From Acholeplasma laidlawii PG-8A (lineage in GTDB: Bacteria > Bacillota_I > Bacilli_A > Acholeplasmatales > Acholeplasmataceae): a stretch of 32,000 nucleotides of DNA. The translations under genes and the position numbers were made by a program. Below the pieces are notes generated by a model. It was not told the DNA's origin and searched no databases. It saw only the letters and a list, made by a program, of their open reading frames with translations. Below, piece by piece: positions 252-25,854 of this stretch (position 1 is its first letter; every line of letters starts with the position of its first letter). Location: the NCBI RefSeq assembly GCF_000018785.1, contig NC_010163.1, positions 1,230,001 through 1,262,000 on the forward strand. The letters run 5' to 3'.

Positions 252-809
252 ATGCACATGAATGTAGAAATTGAATTTAAAACACGCATCACTAAAGAAA
301 AATATGATGAACTTATTGATATATTTGAATTAGACCAAAATGTTTTCAAACAAACTAACTACTATTTTGATACACCTGACCTTGATTTAAACAAACGCTC
401 TATGGTCCTTAGAATCAGACATAAAAGAGACGCTTTTAAATTAACGTTAAAGTCTCAAAGTGAAACAGGTTCATTCGAGTATCATGTCTTAATTGATGCT
501 GAACAAGCTGAAAAGATGAAAAAGGATGGATTCCATACAAAAGAATTCTTCGAACAAATTGATTATCATGTATATTTTCAGACATCATTAGACAACTTTA
601 GAGCATCTACACCTTACATGGGTGGTATTCTATTCTTAGATTATAATGAGTATTGCGGTAGAACCGATTACGAACTTGAATATGAAGCAGATCATTTTGA
701 AACTGGTTTAGAAATCTTTAACAAGATGTTACACAAATTCAATATTGAATTTGAACAAACCAAGAGAAAAAGCGAACGTGCACTACTTTGTATTGTACCA
801 ACTAAATAA
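252..809 (+). CDS. CYTH-domain protein (triphosphate tunnel metalloenzyme, YjbK-like)
   Basis: The N-terminal EIEFK sequence is the ExExK CYTH signature, and the size is about 185 aa. The start could be 252 or 258. A stem-loop plus T-run follows the gene. Confidence 0.75.
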   Translation: MHMNVEIEFKTRITKEKYDELIDIFELDQNVFKQTNYYFDTPDLDLNKRSMVLRIRHKRDAFKLTLKSQSETGSFEYHVLIDAEQAEKMKKDGFHTKEFFEQIDYHVYFQTSLDNFRASTPYMGGILFLDYNEYCGRTDYELEYEADHFETGLEIFNKMLHKFNIEFEQTKRKSERALLCIVPTK

Positions 810-820
810 ACACTTAACAA

Positions 821-852
821 ACGTTTAAACTTCTAAGTTTAGACGTTTTTTT
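821..852 (+). terminator. Rho-independent terminator of the CYTH gene
   Basis: A 10-bp stem (acgtttaaac / gtttagacgt, with one G-U pair) and a 6-nt loop are followed by a run of seven T. Confidence 0.7.
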
Positions 853-857
853 ATCAT

Positions 858-890
858 AAAAACACCTACTGATATCAAGTAGGTGTTTTT
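858..890. terminator. Bidirectional stem-loop terminator, serving the minus-strand NERD gene
   Basis: aaaaacacctact-gatatca-agtaggtgttttt forms a 13-bp perfect stem. Its A/T-run arms give a U-tract on either strand. Confidence 0.7.
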
Positions 891-926
891 ACATGGTGCT
901 ACTTAAGGTTCCCCGCCCTTAAACCA

Positions 927-1682
927 TCACTTTTGAATCAACTGGCTAACCTCACTTACGTGATTAGTCTTCGTTGATTGATCTTTCAATATGGCCGAAT
1001 TTAATCTAGACTTTATTTCATTTAACATGTCATCACTAAATATATCTGGTCCATGGGATAATATATCTTTTGTATATTTTATAGTATTTTTTGTCTGCAT
1101 CACAGGTGATGTGCTATCCACTTGGATTTTACTTAACTTACTTCGATTTGAAAAGCTAACCACTGGATAGACTGATTCAAATGGAATGGTTAAATAGTTT
1201 TCTAGTGCTTTATGGTGTGCATAGTTTTGCCTTAACGGATTATAAAACTTATGTTTACTAAAATAATTTAAAACTTGTGTCCAATAGGTATCTAGTTTAG
1301 AACCATAAATATAGCCCCCATAGTTTTTAACTTCGTATACAATTAAACCTTTTTTGCTGACAACTAATAGATCTAATTCTGTATGTGTTGTATTTAAACC
1401 TGGTAAATAAATATTTGTATATATTTCATCTTCTTTAACAAGTCTTTTAAGTTTACGGTATAACCTAAACTCACCCATATGACCTTTGTTAAAATAAGTT
1501 TTGAAAAAGCCATTACCTGACTTCTTCTTATAGCCACTTTGGTAGATAGTTATCACATCATAGATAAAACAAATGATTTTAATTAATAGGTTGATCGTAA
1601 ATATTGTCAGTGTTACAAGTAATGAGGCTACCCCTACAAACACATCTACAATATCTGCTTGTTTCTTTTTTCTTCGTGCCAT
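927..1682 (-). CDS. NERD (nuclease-related domain) protein with an N-terminal transmembrane anchor
   Basis: A hydrophobic helix (VFVGVASLLVTLTIFTINLLIKIICFIY) is followed by a NERD-like core: GEFRLYRKLKRL...IYLPG...ELDLLVVSKKGLIVYEVKNYGG. The gene has its own TATAAT and AGAGGG RBS in 1683-1740. Confidence 0.7.
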   Translation of the reverse strand: MARRKKKQADIVDVFVGVASLLVTLTIFTINLLIKIICFIYDVITIYQSGYKKKSGNGFFKTYFNKGHMGEFRLYRKLKRLVKEDEIYTNIYLPGLNTTHTELDLLVVSKKGLIVYEVKNYGGYIYGSKLDTYWTQVLNYFSKHKFYNPLRQNYAHHKALENYLTIPFESVYPVVSFSNRSKLSKIQVDSTSPVMQTKNTIKYTKDILSHGPDIFSDDMLNEIKSRLNSAILKDQSTKTNHVSEVSQLIQK

Positions 1683-1740
1683 CTTTTATGCCCTCTTTTC
1701 AAGTTATCTTTAATCGGTATGCTCATTATAGCGACATAAA

Positions 1741-1779
1741 AAATAAAAAAAAGATGTTGTGACAATACAGCAACATCTT
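1741..1779 (-). terminator. Rho-independent terminator of the HTH-membrane gene
   Basis: On the minus strand: aagatgttg-ctgtattgtca-caacatctt, followed by tttttttt. Confidence 0.7.
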
Positions 1780-1804
1780 CTATATGATTGTGACAATTAT
1801 TCAA

Positions 1805-2785
1805 CTATTTGTCTTGATAAAGCTTTTGAGGTGGTTTACCGTGGGCATCAAATATAATCTCATATTGATTATAGTACTTGGAGATATTGATAAAATCTAT
1901 AATGTTTAAACTATATAATAAACAGCTTAATATAAGTATAGGAATATTTAATGTAGTTGCAAACAACGTAAACAATATATAAACAAATTGAAACGAACTA
2001 AAACTTAAAAGTAATAGACTTAAATCATAGCCATCTAACTGATTATCATAGCGAACCACTTTAAATCTAAACGGTATGTGTGCGACAGATACTATTAAGA
2101 GCATCATTTGAAGCAGCATAACTACTATATAAAGACTCATGATATAAGCTATCGATGCCTCTAATTGAGTGAATAACAAGATACAAAATACTAACAGTAG
2201 AATCATCAGTATGAACATGATAATTCTACTGTAAATATTTAGTTTAACTGAAACTTGCTTAAGTGGTTTAGCTTCATAATATATATCATCAGTATAATTG
2301 ATAATAAACTGTTCTCTTCTTTTTAGATATCTAATAAGTATATATAAAGAAACAGTCAACATACCAAACACTACAATCATAAAATAATCACTATTTAATT
2401 TAATAATCTGTGCAACAAAAGATACTATTACAGATATAACTACGAATAAAAATATTAATATAACAGGTTTTCTTAAGAAAGGTTTATAGTTTAAAAATAG
2501 TTTTATTTTTTGTGGTATTTGAGGTTCAAATCCGGCTTCTACTGCACCGATTCTTAAAAGTTCATTTTTAGTGTAGTAAAGTTCATTAACACTTATATTA
2601 AAATATGAAGCCGCTTGATAAATATGTTCCGGACTCATGTTAGAAACACCACTTTTCCATTTAGATAAAAGTGTCCTATCTAAATCGTTTGCTAGTGCGT
2701 AAGCTGACATCGTAATACCTTTGGACTTCAAATGCTTAAAGAAGTTATCCTGAATAATTTCTTGTCTTCTTGTAATTTGATCCAT
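1805..2785 (-). CDS. XRE-family HTH domain fused to a polytopic membrane domain
   Basis: The N-terminal ~70 aa look like an XRE/Cro HTH (ITMSAYALANDLDRTLLSKWKSGVSNMSPEHIYQAASYFNISVNELY). About six long hydrophobic segments follow. Confidence 0.65.
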   Translation of the reverse strand: MDQITRRQEIIQDNFFKHLKSKGITMSAYALANDLDRTLLSKWKSGVSNMSPEHIYQAASYFNISVNELYYTKNELLRIGAVEAGFEPQIPQKIKLFLNYKPFLRKPVILIFLFVVISVIVSFVAQIIKLNSDYFMIVVFGMLTVSLYILIRYLKRREQFIINYTDDIYYEAKPLKQVSVKLNIYSRIIMFILMILLLVFCILLFTQLEASIAYIMSLYIVVMLLQMMLLIVSVAHIPFRFKVVRYDNQLDGYDLSLLLLSFSSFQFVYILFTLFATTLNIPILILSCLLYSLNIIDFINISKYYNQYEIIFDAHGKPPQKLYQDK

Positions 2786-2831
2786 TTAAAACCTCTCCAC
2801 ATAGTATCATTATAAAGTCATTGTACCATGA

Positions 2832-2865
2832 ATAAAAAAAGAATAACTCGTAAAAGTTATTCTTT
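2832..2865 (-). terminator. Rho-independent terminator of spx
   Basis: On the minus strand: aaagaataac-ttttacga-gttattcttt followed by ttttttt. The stem includes the TAA stop codon. Confidence 0.7.
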
Positions 2866-3318
2866 ATCAGTTTCATTTGTATCAATTGTTGCAAAATATC
2901 TGCTTAATGTGTCTTCGTAATGTGTAAAATCCTCCTCAGAGTTTTCTCTCATGATCATTTCACGTAATTTCTTAGGAATAAACACACGAATTTCTTCATC
3001 ATTATAACCTACTTGCATGCGTTTAGCATCCACGATAATTGGTCGTTTTAAAACAGATGGATGGTTAATAATGAAATTTTTAAGTTCAGATACAGACATA
3101 TCTTCTACTTCTAATTCTTGTTCTTTAAATACTTTAGAACGTGTTGAAATAATGTCATCAAATCCGTTTTCAGCGTGATGTAACATCATCTCAATGTCGG
3201 TATCATCTATGCGGTGGTTGAATAAATTCTTTTCCTCATATGCTACCTTATGCTCATCGAGCCACTTTTTTGCCTTACGACATGATGAGCAACTTGGAGT
3301 CGTATAAATTGTAATCAT
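2857..3318 (-). CDS. spx: Spx/ArsC-family redox-sensing transcriptional regulator
   Basis: MITIYTTPSCSSCRKAKKWL carries the CxxC switch. ISTRSKVF and LKRPIIVD..RMQVGYN are collinear with Bacillus Spx as recalled. The C-terminal tail is about 20 aa longer and acidic. Confidence 0.85.
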   Translation of the reverse strand: MITIYTTPSCSSCRKAKKWLDEHKVAYEEKNLFNHRIDDTDIEMMLHHAENGFDDIISTRSKVFKEQELEVEDMSVSELKNFIINHPSVLKRPIIVDAKRMQVGYNDEEIRVFIPKKLREMIMRENSEEDFTHYEDTLSRYFATIDTNETDKE

Positions 3319-21890: not shown

Positions 21891-22583
21891 TTAAAATGAT
21901 TGTTTGATAACCTTTTTAGTAAGTTCTTCTACGTTGAATGCTTCTGCATATTGTGTTCTAGCTTCACAACCTCTGACAATCATTAATGCTTCATAGTATC
22001 TCTTATATTCGAATGACTTAGAGTGAATCGCAAACCAGTGACTGTCGATTGCTTTTTGCCATAACTTATAACCAGCCTCAGATACATTTACATAGACATA
22101 AGGTTTAAAGTCAATTGGGTCTTCCCAGTTTTCTGCATAGTATGGTCCACTTGCATAGTGTGGTGGTAGGTCCGTTTCAAAACCTTTAATGCCTGCATAA
22201 AATTGAGCATCTTTAACAATATGATACGTTGCTTCATGATCTTTATGCATCGAATTTTTCCAGTGTGTAATTAAAACATCAGGCTTGTGTTCTCTAATCA
22301 GTTTTGCGACTTCAAATTTTACTTTATCATTGGTAAGTAGTTCACCATCACTATAAGGTAATACAACACTTATACCACCAAGCATGTCAGCAAAACTAAC
22401 CGCTTCACTTTCTTTTTGCTTTCTATATTCTTTAACACTTAAGTGTGGTGGGTTTCCTTTTTCTCCACCAGTAAGTGCAACAATAACTATCTTATGTCCT
22501 TCTAAACTCATTGTTGCAAGTGTGCCACCACAGGTGAGTTCCATATCCCCTATGTGGCCACCAATTGCCATAATCGTTTTCAT
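21891..22583 (-). CDS. PIG-L/LmbE-family N-acetylglucosaminyl deacetylase
   Basis: AIGGHIGDME matches the (A/P)H(P)xDD/E motif, and HKDH matches the HxDH metal-ligand motif. The length is 230 aa. Its ATG directly abuts the TAG stop of the upstream GNAT gene. Confidence 0.75.
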   Translation of the reverse strand: MKTIMAIGGHIGDMELTCGGTLATMSLEGHKIVIVALTGGEKGNPPHLSVKEYRKQKESEAVSFADMLGGISVVLPYSDGELLTNDKVKFEVAKLIREHKPDVLITHWKNSMHKDHEATYHIVKDAQFYAGIKGFETDLPPHYASGPYYAENWEDPIDFKPYVYVNVSEAGYKLWQKAIDSHWFAIHSKSFEYKRYYEALMIVRGCEARTQYAEAFNVEELTKKVIKQSF

Positions 22584-23561
22584 CTAAAAATCCACCTTTC
22601 TCATATCTATAAATGTTCTAACAATCTTAAAACCTTCTTTTTCATACATACGTCTAGCAGGATTGTTCTCACCTGTAAATAACGTCATGTAAGATGCGCC
22701 TAAATTCTTTAAGCCCATGACCAGTTTTGCAAATAAGGCTTTACCAAGGCCAAATCCCCTAAATTCAGAATGTGTTCCTATACCTGCAAAATACCCTCTC
22801 TTATTAGCCTCAACAATTAACGGTCCTGTAAATCCTATCACTCTATGATTAAATGTTGGTACTAGTAAAGTATTCTTATCTTTCATTTTCTCAACATGTA
22901 TGGTGACTGTTTTTTTCCATACAGGACTTCCTAAATCGTCTAATAATTCTACTAACCCATGATCTTTTTCAATATCATAGTAAGCAAACTTAACACCCTT
23001 TTCTTCTACACTTGAAATGACCTCACTTGTTTGATTACTAAATTCATAGTCTCTAATATCCATATAGTATGCATTTTGAACAGCAAAATCTATATAGTTC
23101 TTAGATTTAAAGAATAGGTAAGCAACTGAGTTTTGATCAATACCTGGAGCATTTGGATGTATTGCATCTGTGTTAGGGACAATCCAACTAAAGCCTACTG
23201 GATTAAAAAATACAATTTCAATTTTTTTCACCATAAGATCTTGTTTGATCAAAGTATCTTCTAGTGTTTTTAGCAACATTGAGCCTATGCCTTTTCTCAT
23301 ATGTTTTTCATCAACAATAATCATTGAAATATAAGATTTTTTAGTGTCTTTATCATAGGTACCACTAATAAATCCGGTAACTTGATCATTTTCTACTGCA
23401 ACAAAAGAATGAATATCATAGATTGAAGTGGATTCTAGGAACTTCATTCTAAACTGATCGATGTTTAGTTTTTCATATAGAAAGTCACCTCTATTTGTAG
23501 TTTTGTTAAATAGATTGAGTGCTTCACTTAAGTGTTTATCTTCCAACTTGGTAATATGCAT
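22584..23561 (-). CDS. Tandem two-domain GNAT N-acetyltransferase
   Basis: Two acetyl-CoA-binding R/QxxGxG/A motifs are present: RKGIGSML in the N-terminal domain and RGFGLGKAL in the C-terminal domain. The length is 325 aa. Confidence 0.75.
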   Translation of the reverse strand: MHITKLEDKHLSEALNLFNKTTNRGDFLYEKLNIDQFRMKFLESTSIYDIHSFVAVENDQVTGFISGTYDKDTKKSYISMIIVDEKHMRKGIGSMLLKTLEDTLIKQDLMVKKIEIVFFNPVGFSWIVPNTDAIHPNAPGIDQNSVAYLFFKSKNYIDFAVQNAYYMDIRDYEFSNQTSEVISSVEEKGVKFAYYDIEKDHGLVELLDDLGSPVWKKTVTIHVEKMKDKNTLLVPTFNHRVIGFTGPLIVEANKRGYFAGIGTHSEFRGFGLGKALFAKLVMGLKNLGASYMTLFTGENNPARRMYEKEGFKIVRTFIDMRKVDF

Positions 23562-23640: not shown

Positions 23641-23690
23641 AAAAAAACTATAACTAGCAAATCATTTATGGACTAGTTATAGTTTTTTTT
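23641..23690. terminator. Strong bidirectional terminator ending the redox operon
   Basis: aaaaaaactataactag-(14 nt)-ctagttatagtttttttt forms a 12-bp perfect stem flanked by A and T runs. Confidence 0.8.
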
Positions 23691-23696
23691 ATATGA

Positions 23697-24338
23697 TTAA
23701 ATTTTTTCTATTTCGTTTAAGAATGCTTCAATTGGTTGATTACCTAAGAATTCATACTTATCGTTAATAATAATCTTTGGTACACTGCTTACATTATATT
23801 TCATGGATAAATCACTAAAAGTTTGAGCTTCATAAGCATCTGCTGTAATATTAGGATTTGTCATTGCAAGTCTAAATGCACTTGATACTGCACCAGGACA
23901 ATGTGGACAACTTAATGTTACAAACACTTTAATGTTCACATCTTTGTCAATTTTGCTTAATCTTGCAAGTGTCTTTTCATCAAAGAATGGCTTAGTTGAA
24001 GCACTATCAATTAATGCTGAAATAAGTGAATTGATTTCATGACCTGCAGGTATACCATTGAATCTAAAGTTTCTAAAGTTATTGTTTTGATCTAGTATAA
24101 CAAATGTAGGTGCTAAGGTTACATTGTACTTTTCAGCTTCTACTTTATCGTCTTCTAGTGTTCTTTCAACAAAAGTAATCTTATCATTTAAAGCACTTAC
24201 TTCTTCTAGTAATTGTAAAGTTGGTTCACATGTTTCACAATCATGTGATGTGAATAAAATGACTTTGATTGGATTATCCATCATTTTTAATACTTCTTTA
24301 ATTTGTCCAGCTACATCTGGTGTTAATAAACTTTTCAT
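23697..24338 (-). CDS. Double-thioredoxin-fold protein disulfide oxidoreductase (PDO / glutaredoxin-like / AhpF-N-terminal-domain-like)
   Basis: Two CxxC motifs lie about 100 aa apart: DCETCEP and SCPHCPG. The length is 213 aa. Its AAAGGAG RBS sits inside the 3' end of the upstream gene. Confidence 0.75.
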   Translation of the reverse strand: MKSLLTPDVAGQIKEVLKMMDNPIKVILFTSHDCETCEPTLQLLEEVSALNDKITFVERTLEDDKVEAEKYNVTLAPTFVILDQNNNFRNFRFNGIPAGHEINSLISALIDSASTKPFFDEKTLARLSKIDKDVNIKVFVTLSCPHCPGAVSSAFRLAMTNPNITADAYEAQTFSDLSMKYNVSSVPKIIINDKYEFLGNQPIEAFLNEIEKI

Positions 24339-24342
24339 TTTG

Positions 24343-25311
24343 TTATTCTCCTTTGAATTTTAAATATTGGTTTGCATGTATAGCTGCTTTTGCACCTTCT
24401 GCTGCAGCTATGATAATTTGTTTGTGGGGTTGATCTACCATATCACCTGCTGCATATAGCCCAGGTATATTAGTTTCTTGTTTACTATTTACGATGACCT
24501 CATGATAGTCATTTAGTGTTACGAAGTCTTTAATAAACTTCGTGTTTGGTTTCATACCAATGGCAACAAATAAGCCATCTGCTTTAAAGTTTGAAGTTTG
24601 ATTGGTCTTCTTATCTAAAATGGTTAAACTATCTACTTGATTCCTACCATGTACTTCAAGTATTTGAGTTTCTAACATATAATCAATCTTGTCGTTTTTA
24701 TACATATTTTCGAGTAGTATTTTATCTGCTCTAAACTTTGATCTTTGAATAACTGTAACTTTTTTAGCCCATTTAGCTAAATCGAGTGCAGATTCTATTG
24801 CAGAGTTTCCACCACCTGCAACAACAACGTGTTTGTCCTTGTAAAATGGTGCATCACAGATCGCACAATAAGATATACCTTTCGCATCAAAGATATCTTC
24901 TCCTGGAATACCTAACTTTTTAGGTGTGCTTCCTGTTGAGAGTAAAACTGTTTTTGATTGAATGATATCACCATTGTTTAAATATATTTGAAATAAATTA
25001 TTATCTTTTGTGATTTTATCGACATAAATTTTATCTAAAACTGGAATTTCGAACTGTTTTACATGTGAGATAAACTTTTCAGTTAATCCACTACCTGTAT
25101 CATTTGGTAAACCTAAGTAGTTATCTACATCATTGGTATTTAGTAATTGACCACCTATATCATAAGTAATGATACCGGTTGTCATACCAAGACGATGTGC
25201 ATAAATGCTTGCATTTAATCCAGATGGACCACCACCAATAACAAGAAAGTCGTATATTAATTGTGTGTTGAATGTGTTATGAAGTTGTGTGTCTAAATTA
25301 AAGTTAAACAT
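24343..25311 (-). CDS. Thioredoxin-reductase-like FAD-dependent disulfide reductase
   Basis: VIGGGPSGLNASIYA is the FAD GxGxxG motif. YCAICDAPFY is the redox-active CxxC (compare TrxB CATCD). VAGGGNSAIESA is the NAD(P)H motif. GLYAAGD is also present. Confidence 0.85.
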   Translation of the reverse strand: MFNFNLDTQLHNTFNTQLIYDFLVIGGGPSGLNASIYAHRLGMTTGIITYDIGGQLLNTNDVDNYLGLPNDTGSGLTEKFISHVKQFEIPVLDKIYVDKITKDNNLFQIYLNNGDIIQSKTVLLSTGSTPKKLGIPGEDIFDAKGISYCAICDAPFYKDKHVVVAGGGNSAIESALDLAKWAKKVTVIQRSKFRADKILLENMYKNDKIDYMLETQILEVHGRNQVDSLTILDKKTNQTSNFKADGLFVAIGMKPNTKFIKDFVTLNDYHEVIVNSKQETNIPGLYAAGDMVDQPHKQIIIAAAEGAKAAIHANQYLKFKGE

Positions 25312-25333
25312 AAATAATTCTCCTTAATCTGCT

Positions 25334-25816
25334 CTAAAGTTTAATTTTACAAACACCTGAGTGTATTTGTCTAATCACTATACCTAAGCCTATGACAATA
25401 AGTACAAGTGACATGATTTTATATGGGAATCCTGCAAGTGGTAATGCAATGACACTAAAGCTAATGCCGATTGCTGCAAAAAATGCTATCACACAACTTG
25501 TACAACCATAGGTTAGTATACCAAATAATACCGATACAAACCCTAAATTTGATGCTTTAGATTCTCTACCCTTAATCTCTACCATTGCTGTGGATAAATT
25601 CATTAAAAGCGTTGATAGAATTGCCATGATAACATTCATGAAGATGTTAATCACTACAAGATACGTACCGAATTGGTTTGCCATGGCTTCATAGGACATA
25701 TTTAAGTAATCTACGATAAAATATATAAACAAGAACAACAATAGAAATATCATACCTTGAATCACATATTTTTTAGTTTTTAAAAGATCAAATGCTAGTT
25801 TTACCATCATATTCAC
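25334..25816 (-). CDS. Small integral membrane protein (about 4 TM) with an intramembrane CxxC
   Basis: The 160-aa protein has four long hydrophobic segments, and YGCTSCV sits inside the third. An AAGGAG RBS lies 5 nt before the ATG. It is the first gene of the redox operon. Confidence 0.7.
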   Translation of the reverse strand: MNMMVKLAFDLLKTKKYVIQGMIFLLLFLFIYFIVDYLNMSYEAMANQFGTYLVVINIFMNVIMAILSTLLMNLSTAMVEIKGRESKASNLGFVSVLFGILTYGCTSCVIAFFAAIGISFSVIALPLAGFPYKIMSLVLIVIGLGIVIRQIHSGVCKIKL

Positions 25817-25836
25817 TCCTTATTTGCAATTATAAT

Positions 25837-25854
25837 TATACCATGTGGGGTATA
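25837..25854. promoter_or_regulatory. Operator-like palindrome TATACC-N6-GGTATA, copy 1, overlapping the -10 box
   Basis: On the minus strand: TATACCccacatGGTATAAT. The right arm is fused to a TATAAT -10 box about 25 nt upstream of the RBS of the membrane ORF. Confidence 0.6.

Follow-up and report, generated by a model that had tools for sequence, protein, structure and literature searches.

A three-gene thiol–disulfide operon of Acholeplasma laidlawii with a candidate membrane relay protein of an undescribed family

A flavoprotein of the low-Mr (low relative molecular mass) thioredoxin reductase (TrxR) type is the established electron donor of protein disulfide oxidoreductases (PDOs), as worked out in Pyrococcus, Sulfolobus and Thermotoga. 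Here we describe a related arrangement from Acholeplasma laidlawii PG-8A, an operon of three open reading frames (ORFs) within a 32,000-nucleotide stretch of contig NC_010163.1 (positions 1,230,001 to 1,262,000; G+C content 31.6%), which we refer to as the window. ORF3 is like the PDOs of hyperthermophiles (P. furiosus, PDB entry 1A8L; P. horikoshii, 1J08; Aquifex, 2YWM/2AYT; and the glutaredoxin (Grx)-like protein and TrxR of Thermotoga), and the likeness extends to the placing of a PDO next to a low-Mr TrxR-type flavoprotein (here ORF2), for which Sulfolobus can also be named. In contrast to these systems, the host here is a mesophilic, wall-less relative of the Bacillota, and the pair lies under a CsoR-family operator in an operon with a membrane protein containing a CxxC motif (ORF1).

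The same two modules, a double thioredoxin fold and a TrxR-like flavoprotein, are combined in AhpF and in the 'AhpF homolog' fusion of the NCBIfam model TIGR03143. In A. laidlawii they are split into two genes which score under both cutoffs and, unlike in AhpF, both thioredoxin folds of ORF3 carry a CxxC and no AhpC is encoded nearby. By sequence ORF2 and ORF3 would correspond to a split form of the TIGR03143 fusion. A regulatory parallel is provided by the CstR-controlled cst operons of S. aureus, E. faecalis and S. mitis, which have the same type of operator sequence, and the repressor found in relatives of A. laidlawii is associated with genes of the CoA persulfide reductase type and with rhodanese genes. 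The regulated genes here are, however, TrxR–PDO and ORF1, and no repressor gene lies beside the A. laidlawii operon.

For the membrane protein, the nearest functional parallels are CcdA, DsbD and ScsB, in the manner of which the membrane cysteines of ORF1 would link cytoplasmic reductants of the thioredoxin (Trx) type to extracytoplasmic thioredoxin-fold proteins. The contexts of ORF1 homologues, where copper genes and extracytoplasmic DsbA-like proteins are found as well as a cytoplasmic TrxR with its Trx, Grx or PDO, also recall the Scs system. ORF1 has four rather than six transmembrane (TM) helices, and its CxxC lies in one broken helix and is joined by a tail Cys, whereas CcdA and its relatives have two repeats with one Cys each. 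With DsbB and VKOR it shares an architecture of four membrane helices and the location of a CxxC at the N-terminal end of one of them, as well as genes for membrane-anchored DsbA-like proteins directly beside family members; it differs in that there is no second Cys pair in an outer loop and the third Cys is predicted to be cytoplasmic. Pfam and PDB searches revealed no sequence or fold similarity of ORF1 to CcdA/DsbD (Pfam DsbD_TM), DsbB or VKOR, such that ORF1 would functionally resemble CcdA/DsbD, and less so DsbB/VKOR, without detectable homology. Many hosts of the ORF1 family, among them DPANN-like archaea and relatives of Acholeplasma, may lack quinones.

The reading that we favour, and to which we give about even weight, is that the operon encodes a stress-inducible NAD(P)H–flavoprotein–PDO system and, coupled to it, a membrane thiol relay of a new kind. 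ORF2 and ORF3 together belong to a kind already known, and ORF1 is the novel part of the operon. On purely comparative evidence, ORF1 and its partners would be best classed as a membrane thiol–disulfide transducer.

The ORF1 family and its genomic partners

ORF1 matches no Pfam or NCBIfam family, and 41 diverse members of its family gave no Pfam match at E <= 1. An exhaustive HMMER search of 1.84 billion representatives recovered 79 clusters; the family is small, undescribed and absent from Pfam, NCBIfam and the PDB. Among members down to ~20% identity the only invariant residues are C105, C108 and C156, and these three Cys are present without exception in the 41 diverse members. The initial annotation had described ORF1 as a four-TM protein with a CxxC; both features stand, and the CxxC proves to be invariant among homologues down to that same identity, but the third invariant, cytoplasmic Cys had been overlooked. 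One metagenomic subgroup (L162-L169, for example L162:4001-4465) has a vicinal Cys–Cys pair at the point in the membrane that the CxxC otherwise occupies, and the C-terminal Cys is retained ~50 residues later.

The AlphaFold (AF2) model of ORF1, with a predicted local distance difference test (pLDDT) score of 82.6, consists of four long helices, and the CxxC (C105-x-x-C108) is located at a break between helices 92-102 and 106-124. The motif is thereby predicted to sit at the N-terminus of a half-helix, mid-membrane. No fold match to the model was found in the PDB with Foldseek, and the sole match in a PDB profile search was to a designed helical protein (E = 0.28). Across the family, Lys and Arg are concentrated in the N-terminus (3.9 per sequence), loop 2 (2.6) and the C-terminus (3.2) as against loops 1 and 3 (0.95 and 0.93), which by the positive-inside rule predicts an N-in/C-in topology and therefore a cytoplasmic location of C156. 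The two loops predicted to face outwards contain 0.07 and 0.00 Cys per sequence.

The genes that accompany distant homologues (20-35% identity) may point to the function of the family. A metagenome scan, for which the query was a narrower subgroup alignment (A4), gave 64 loci with a family member (1e-21 to 1e-43 against the family hidden Markov model), mostly on archaeal contigs carrying genes for eIF-1a, NMD3, primase, fibrillarin and RLI. In 21 of these 64 loci the immediate next ORF on the same strand encodes a TM-anchored DsbA-like protein (Thioredoxin_4, PF13462, 1.6e-39; DSBA, 9e-23; motif CPFC), the thioredoxin domain of which would lie outside the cell because of the N-terminal anchor, and five further loci have a DsbA-like protein within 3.5 kb of the homologue. 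Elsewhere the partners are of the cytoplasmic type: a thioredoxin (WCGPC) and a helix-turn-helix protein precede the homologue in L081, a Grx (CVYC), a TrxR-like protein (CSTC) and a cupredoxin lipoprotein follow it in L087, and in L113 and L124 it stands behind Grx, TrxR and MauE genes. A rhodanese gene follows the homologue in L092 and L094, and CopA follows it in L085 and L086. The link of the family to thioredoxin-fold and TrxR genes thus recurs independently in distant lineages. Some lineages have cytoplasmic partners (PDO, or Grx/Trx with TrxR), and others have extracytoplasmic ones of the DsbA-like type. Thioredoxin-fold proteins are the most frequent neighbours in the family as a whole, ahead of metal and sulfur enzymes, and a partner with this fold is the common denominator of the family.

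Around the pair of ORF1-homologue and DsbA-like genes, four further genes recur on archaeal-type contigs (L130, L131, L139, L140, L143-L146 and L150). Their products are a membrane-anchored winged-helix regulator with CxxxxxC, a DUF3105 protein that has a zinc finger at its N-terminus, a membrane protein rich in Met and Cys, and cupredoxin-like proteins, of which there are one or two; CopA sometimes accompanies them. The group has the appearance of a conserved island for envelope redox and copper functions. Bacteria show a faint counterpart of the archaeal pairing: in two Erysipelotrichaceae loci the ORF1 homologue and a DsbA-like gene on the other strand are ~2 kb apart (L050:5883-6479 and L057:9091-9405).

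Among closer relatives the picture is more varied. An ORF1 homologue was found in 245 species, and in the closest 80 of these it adjoins TrxR and PDO in seven (L001-L005, L020 and L055). The three-gene relay put forward in the initial annotation therefore does not hold as a general neighbourhood, being conserved only in Acholeplasma sensu stricto and two other loci. Its gene order is ORF1-TrxR-PDO in five Acholeplasma loci, ORF1-repressor-TrxR-PDO in L020 and TrxR-PDO-ORF1 in L055, the last being repeated in L172/173. This scarcity would suit a simpler account, in which the TrxR and PDO are an ordinary stress-inducible pair acting on oxidised proteins, low-molecular-weight disulfides or persulfides in the cytoplasm and ORF1 is an unrelated gene that was placed in front of them in a small clade. 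The conserved unit elsewhere is indeed repressor-TrxR-PDO without ORF1, and PDO homologues are widespread in Acholeplasmataceae and Izemoplasmatales. Were the membrane gene unrelated, what remained would be a routine stress-inducible PDO/TrxR system. We think this quite improbable: ORF1 heads the operon behind its operator-covered promoter, 22 nt from ORF2; it has the same operator in Erysipelothrix and in other loci that lack TrxR-PDO; three different gene orders join it to TrxR-PDO (L001, L020 and L055/L172); and very distant homologues lie independently beside Trx, Grx, TrxR or DsbA-like genes.

Sulfur-trafficking genes together with the same type of repressor surround the ORF1 homologue in five loci (L017, L019, L035, L049 and L079), in the form of fusions of CoA-disulfide reductase (CoADR) and rhodanese, single rhodaneses and a YeeE-type sulfur transporter. 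In L079, from an Erysipelotrichaceae metagenome-assembled genome, an 830-aa CoA-disulfide-reductase (CDR)-rhodanese-TusA-DsrE fusion (512-3004) directly follows the homologue. A small protein of ~100 aa without a Pfam family is also encoded directly after ORF1 in some Acholeplasmataceae (L009:6528-6851, L012:6529-6885, L028:6543-6893 and 17 other loci), with the conserved core EVKLFTDK..VEIFKIED.LYKVLV.RR and a C-terminal tail in which Cys or His abound (CCxxxxxxCC repeats, HHHH) and which looks metal-binding.

Such neighbours raise the alternative that ORF1 is a cysteine-lined carrier of soft ligands, similar to MerT and MerC, for sulfane sulfur, polysulfide, Cu(I) or Hg(II). A ligand arriving from outside would be bound by the membrane Cys pair, handed to the cytoplasmic Cys and delivered to a cytoplasmic thiol protein, and TrxR-PDO (CoADR-rhodanese elsewhere) would process the imported species or repair damage. 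We regard this as unlikely, though as a serious competitor. ORF1 homologues adjoin genes for CoADR-rhodanese, rhodanese, TusA/DsrE and a YeeE-type transporter in some loci and for CopA and cupredoxins in others, the small proteins with Cys/His-rich tails follow ORF1 at 20 Acholeplasmataceae loci, and a Cys relay from outside to inside would agree with the predicted topology. In one subgroup the CxxC is replaced by a vicinal CC, which MerT also has, and hhalign places the ORF1-family CxxC on the CAAC of MerC, with a similar G-C-x-x-C...A-A-I-G-L pattern. However, the alignment, made against a single MerC sequence, is not significant (probability 5%), MerT does not align, and none of the 41 members matches Pfam MerC or MerT. 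The predominance of thioredoxin-fold neighbours also speaks against a carrier, as does a repressor without the His and Cys that are needed to sense Cu(I) (PMC8643695). Homology to MerC or MerT was accordingly rejected as a claim and kept as a lead.

The flavoprotein and PDO pair

ORF3 scores 242 bits against the PDO model TIGR02187 (cutoff 185), covering model positions 4-208 of 209, and its full length matches the PDB entries 1J08 (1.2e-31), 2YWM (9.8e-31) and 1A8L (6e-30). It has two Thioredoxin_3 stretches, and each of the two folds has a CxxC, as expected of a PDO. The earlier description of ORF3 as a PDO-like protein with two thioredoxin folds is upheld, and its sequence identifies it as a true PDO. 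ORF2, likewise correctly recognised as a TrxR-like flavoprotein, matches Pyr_redox_2 over the full length of the model (3.3e-42) and carries the set of motifs typical of low-Mr TrxR (Table 1). It reaches 315 bits against TIGR01292, the model of low-Mr thioredoxin reductase (cutoff 343.45), and 319 bits against the C-terminal half of TIGR03140, the AhpF model (cutoff 502.9), and in the PDB it finds AhpF (4o5q, 2.6e-66) and TrxR (7jyp, 3.7e-66). ORF2 is equally near to the C-terminal half of AhpF and to TrxR, stays below the equivalog cutoffs of both, and is most simply described as a predicted TrxR/AhpF-C-type flavoprotein.

These scores bear on the possibility that the pair is a split AhpF, which would serve a peroxiredoxin encoded elsewhere as part of an alkyl hydroperoxide reductase system. 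The highest score of ORF2 is indeed that to the AhpF C-terminal half, ORF3 aligns with the AhpF N-terminal domain (99 bits), and together they span the TIGR03143 fusion in the same order. Both nevertheless remain well under the AhpF and TIGR03143 cutoffs, and ORF3 passes the PDO model and has a CxxC in each of its domains, unlike the N-terminal domain of AhpF. Neither the window nor the 80 loci of +/-6 kb contain an AhpC-like gene at E <= 0.01, which extends the initial annotation's report that none is adjacent, and none was present in six further PDO contexts (L170-L175). A split AhpF with an AhpC nearby is therefore rejected, and we consider a split AhpF with a distant peroxiredoxin very improbable indeed. 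The gene order had also been called reversed relative to AhpF; this is true of classical AhpF only, since ORF2 followed by ORF3 is the domain order of TIGR03143.

Homologues of the PDO with 55-60% identity occur widely among Acholeplasmataceae and Izemoplasmatales, and the TrxR-PDO pairing recurs in L001-5, L020, L055 and L170-175. What is widely conserved in relatives is a core that lacks ORF1, in which TrxR and PDO stand behind a CsoR-family repressor gene. From their adjacency and conserved pairing, and by analogy with described PDO systems, ORF3 would be reduced by the ORF2-type flavoprotein with NAD(P)H. Searches of the literature for PDO/TrxR and for the thioredoxin reductase of A. laidlawii gave no specific reports.

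Operators, repressor and operon boundaries

Perfect TATACC-N6-GGTATA palindromes occur twice in the whole window, both in the 224-nt leader of the operon (chance expectation 0.10), and the proximal copy covers the -10 box (Table 1). The distal position is kept in L001, L002 and L005, with constant arms and a variable spacer, and an operator lies at ~-40 from the ORF1 start codon in L001-L005, L019, L035 and L049. In the last three of these it precedes ORF1 with no TrxR-PDO in the locus, and Erysipelothrix is among the hosts with this arrangement. The operators resemble that of the S. mitis cst operon, ATATACCCTTATGGGGTATAT (PMC8643695), the core of which is TATACC-N7-GGTATA as compared with N6 here. 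The promoter thus contains a cst-type operator, one of the marks of a CstR regulon.

A CsoR-family gene (PF02583) stands next to the operon in L001, L005 and L020. In L001 and L005 it is the divergently transcribed upstream neighbour of the triad, and the intergenic region between the two holds both operators; in L020 it lies between ORF1 and TrxR. In L170/171 and L174/175 the operon order is PF02583 repressor, TrxR-like and PDO. These repressor-TrxR-PDO loci have ATACC-N6-GGTAT over the -10 box, and the copy in L174, ATACCCCGTAGGGTAT, has the operator-over-promoter layout seen in A. laidlawii. Among solved structures the relatives' repressor is nearest to that of the persulfide sensor SpCstR (7mq1, 1.4e-11), with which it has the attacking Cys and Asn 'wedge' in common. 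CstR is defined by an x-C-x-C motif that holds the attacking and the resolving Cys (PMC8643695). The relatives' repressors have Cys3 and Cys31 (C-C-x-x) and fall outside this definition, because the resolving Cys is replaced by Thr; the Cys at position 3 is conserved. Control by a copper-sensing CsoR was considered and rejected, as these repressors lack the His and Cys ligands of Cu(I) (PMC8643695) and are closest to CstR.

In A. laidlawii itself, both in the window and in strain 8195 (L002), the repressor gene is cleanly absent at the operon and both operators are intact. Other Acholeplasma have this gene between tpiA and the operon (L001:1871-2143 and L005:5572-5883, compared with window positions 25954-26002), and because it is missing here the tpiA terminator lies only ~50 nt from the distal operator. 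No repressor homologue was found in the window or its flanks by a motif scan of the window and tblastn against the 80 loci, and a database search of limited sensitivity returned no match named A. laidlawii. With the adjacent repressor gene gone, expression may be constitutive or may be controlled in trans by a repressor encoded elsewhere.

The three genes make up one operon, as set out in Table 1. The close packing of three minus-strand ORFs (gaps of 22 nt between ORF1 and ORF2 and 4 nt between ORF2 and ORF3), a ribosome-binding site (AAGGAG) before each, the sequence motifs and the terminators on either side, all of which had been reported in the initial annotation, were recovered. Its further description of an autonomous unit is right as regards the bracketing by terminators, but the unit is not regulator-free since the leader contains two CsoR/CstR-type palindromes. 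The downstream hairpin has a fold energy of -20.3 kcal/mol (z = -5.8), and none of 200 shuffled sequences folds as well. ORF1, which is 96% identical to its homologue in strain 8195, probably starts at ATG 25810 and would then be 158 aa long, because the listed GTG at 25816 overlaps the ribosome-binding site (25821-25816) and homologues begin at the position equivalent to ATG 25810.

Table 1. Features of the operon and its leader, in window coordinates
Feature	Position	Strand	Description
ORF1	25334..25816	-	160 aa as listed; predicted 4-TM membrane protein of an uncurated family; YGCTSCV
ORF2	24343..25311	-	322 aa; predicted low-Mr TrxR/AhpF-C-type FAD flavoprotein disulfide reductase; FAD motif GGGPSG, redox-active CAIC, NAD(P)H motif GGGNSA
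ORF3	23697..24338	-	213 aa; predicted PDO with two thioredoxin folds; CETC, CPHC
Distal operator	25936..25953		CsoR/CstR-type; perfect palindrome TATACC-N6-GGTATA
Proximal operator	25837..25854		Perfect palindrome; overlaps -10 box TGGTATAAT, TATAAT at 25835-25840 on the minus strand
Intrinsic terminator of upstream tpiA	26003..26027	-	9-bp stem with 6 GC pairs, then T-run; upstream boundary of the unit
Intrinsic terminator closing the operon	23641..23689	-	18-bp stem followed by U-run

Directly downstream (21891-23561, minus strand) lie genes for a PIG-L deacetylase and a two-domain GNAT acetyltransferase, the latter of which keeps its place in L004 and L005 by synteny. The deacetylase has the bacillithiol enzyme BshB1 as its best NCBIfam match (92 bits, below the cutoff of 182.5), and the pair recalls MshB/MshD-type steps of low-molecular-weight thiol synthesis. 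A 136-aa ORF adjoining pgk (28915-29325, minus strand) matches the ComK competence regulator family (PF06338, 1.4e-09), in a genome that is mollicute-related.

The proposed transmembrane relay

In the reading that we favour, a thiol-based repressor of the CsoR family would ancestrally have switched the operon on under thiol-oxidant or reactive-sulfur stress, as its promoter is covered by a CsoR/CstR-type operator. ORF2 and ORF3 would constitute a cytoplasmic reductase pair, in which NAD(P)H reduces the FAD/CxxC flavoprotein and this in turn the two-domain PDO. Members of the ORF1 family would exchange thiols and disulfides (or sulfane sulfur) with thioredoxin-fold partners by way of the cytoplasmic C-terminal Cys and the CxxC at the N-terminus of the mid-membrane half-helix, and ORF1 would in this manner couple the reductase pair to the membrane or the outer face. 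The PDO would thus reduce ORF1, and the full chain would run from NAD(P)H through ORF2 (FAD, CAIC), ORF3 (CPHC/CETC) and ORF1 (C156, then C105/C108) to an acceptor at the outer face as the terminal substrate. A transmembrane relay is the simplest mechanism because thioredoxin-fold partners are combined with a cytoplasmic Cys, a mid-membrane CxxC and outer loops without Cys. The direction of electron flow we infer from the presence of a reductase pair; flow might instead be reversed, with export of oxidising equivalents.

Several points weigh against this proposal. The function suggested for ORF1 is drawn entirely from gene context, and in Pfam, Foldseek and PDB profile searches the protein had no homology to any characterised redox membrane protein. 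The model is at its weakest around the CxxC, with a pLDDT of only 61-69, and with three Cys, none of them in the outer loops, how the tail Cys would reach the mid-membrane CxxC is unexplained. ORF1 lies away from TrxR/PDO in 73 of the 80 closest genomes; in most Acholeplasmataceae it is found between potABCD and a TetR-ABC cluster, without an operator, and often in front of the small Cys/His-tailed protein (20 loci), the tail of which hints at metal binding. The copper genes CopA and cupredoxins also recur beside distant homologues. With respect to regulation, the inducer is uncertain because the relatives' repressor lacks the resolving Cys that defines CstR, and no repressor was found for the A. 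laidlawii genome in the window, its flanks or the database search of limited sensitivity.

A broader proposition, which we put forward tentatively and hold to be possible rather than probable, is that, beside DsbB/VKOR and CcdA/DsbD, the ORF1 family represents a third class of transmembrane thiol–disulfide transducer with an evolutionary origin of its own. Its tail Cys on the cytoplasmic side and its mid-membrane CxxC would relay redox equivalents between TrxR-driven PDO, Grx or Trx in the cytoplasm and DsbA-like proteins outside it.

Apart from ORF1, this work defines a variant of the CsoR-family repressor (Cys3/Cys31), together with its operator, that would control TrxR-PDO operons across Acholeplasmatales and Izemoplasmatales. 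The recycling of DsbA-like proteins in organisms without DsbB, VKOR or quinones is an open problem, and some such proteins have been noted to 'lack a regenerating enzyme partner' (PMC12453122). The ORF1 family is a concrete and testable candidate for the missing partner, because it is a small and delimited family with three invariant Cys, found beside archaeal DsbA-like genes and beside a reductase pair. If the proposal is true, the family would be the missing membrane partner of DsbA-like proteins where DsbB and VKOR are absent, as in mollicute relatives and small-genome archaea, and A. laidlawii provides a cultivable host in which ORF1 stands beside a complete NAD(P)H-driven reductase pair.

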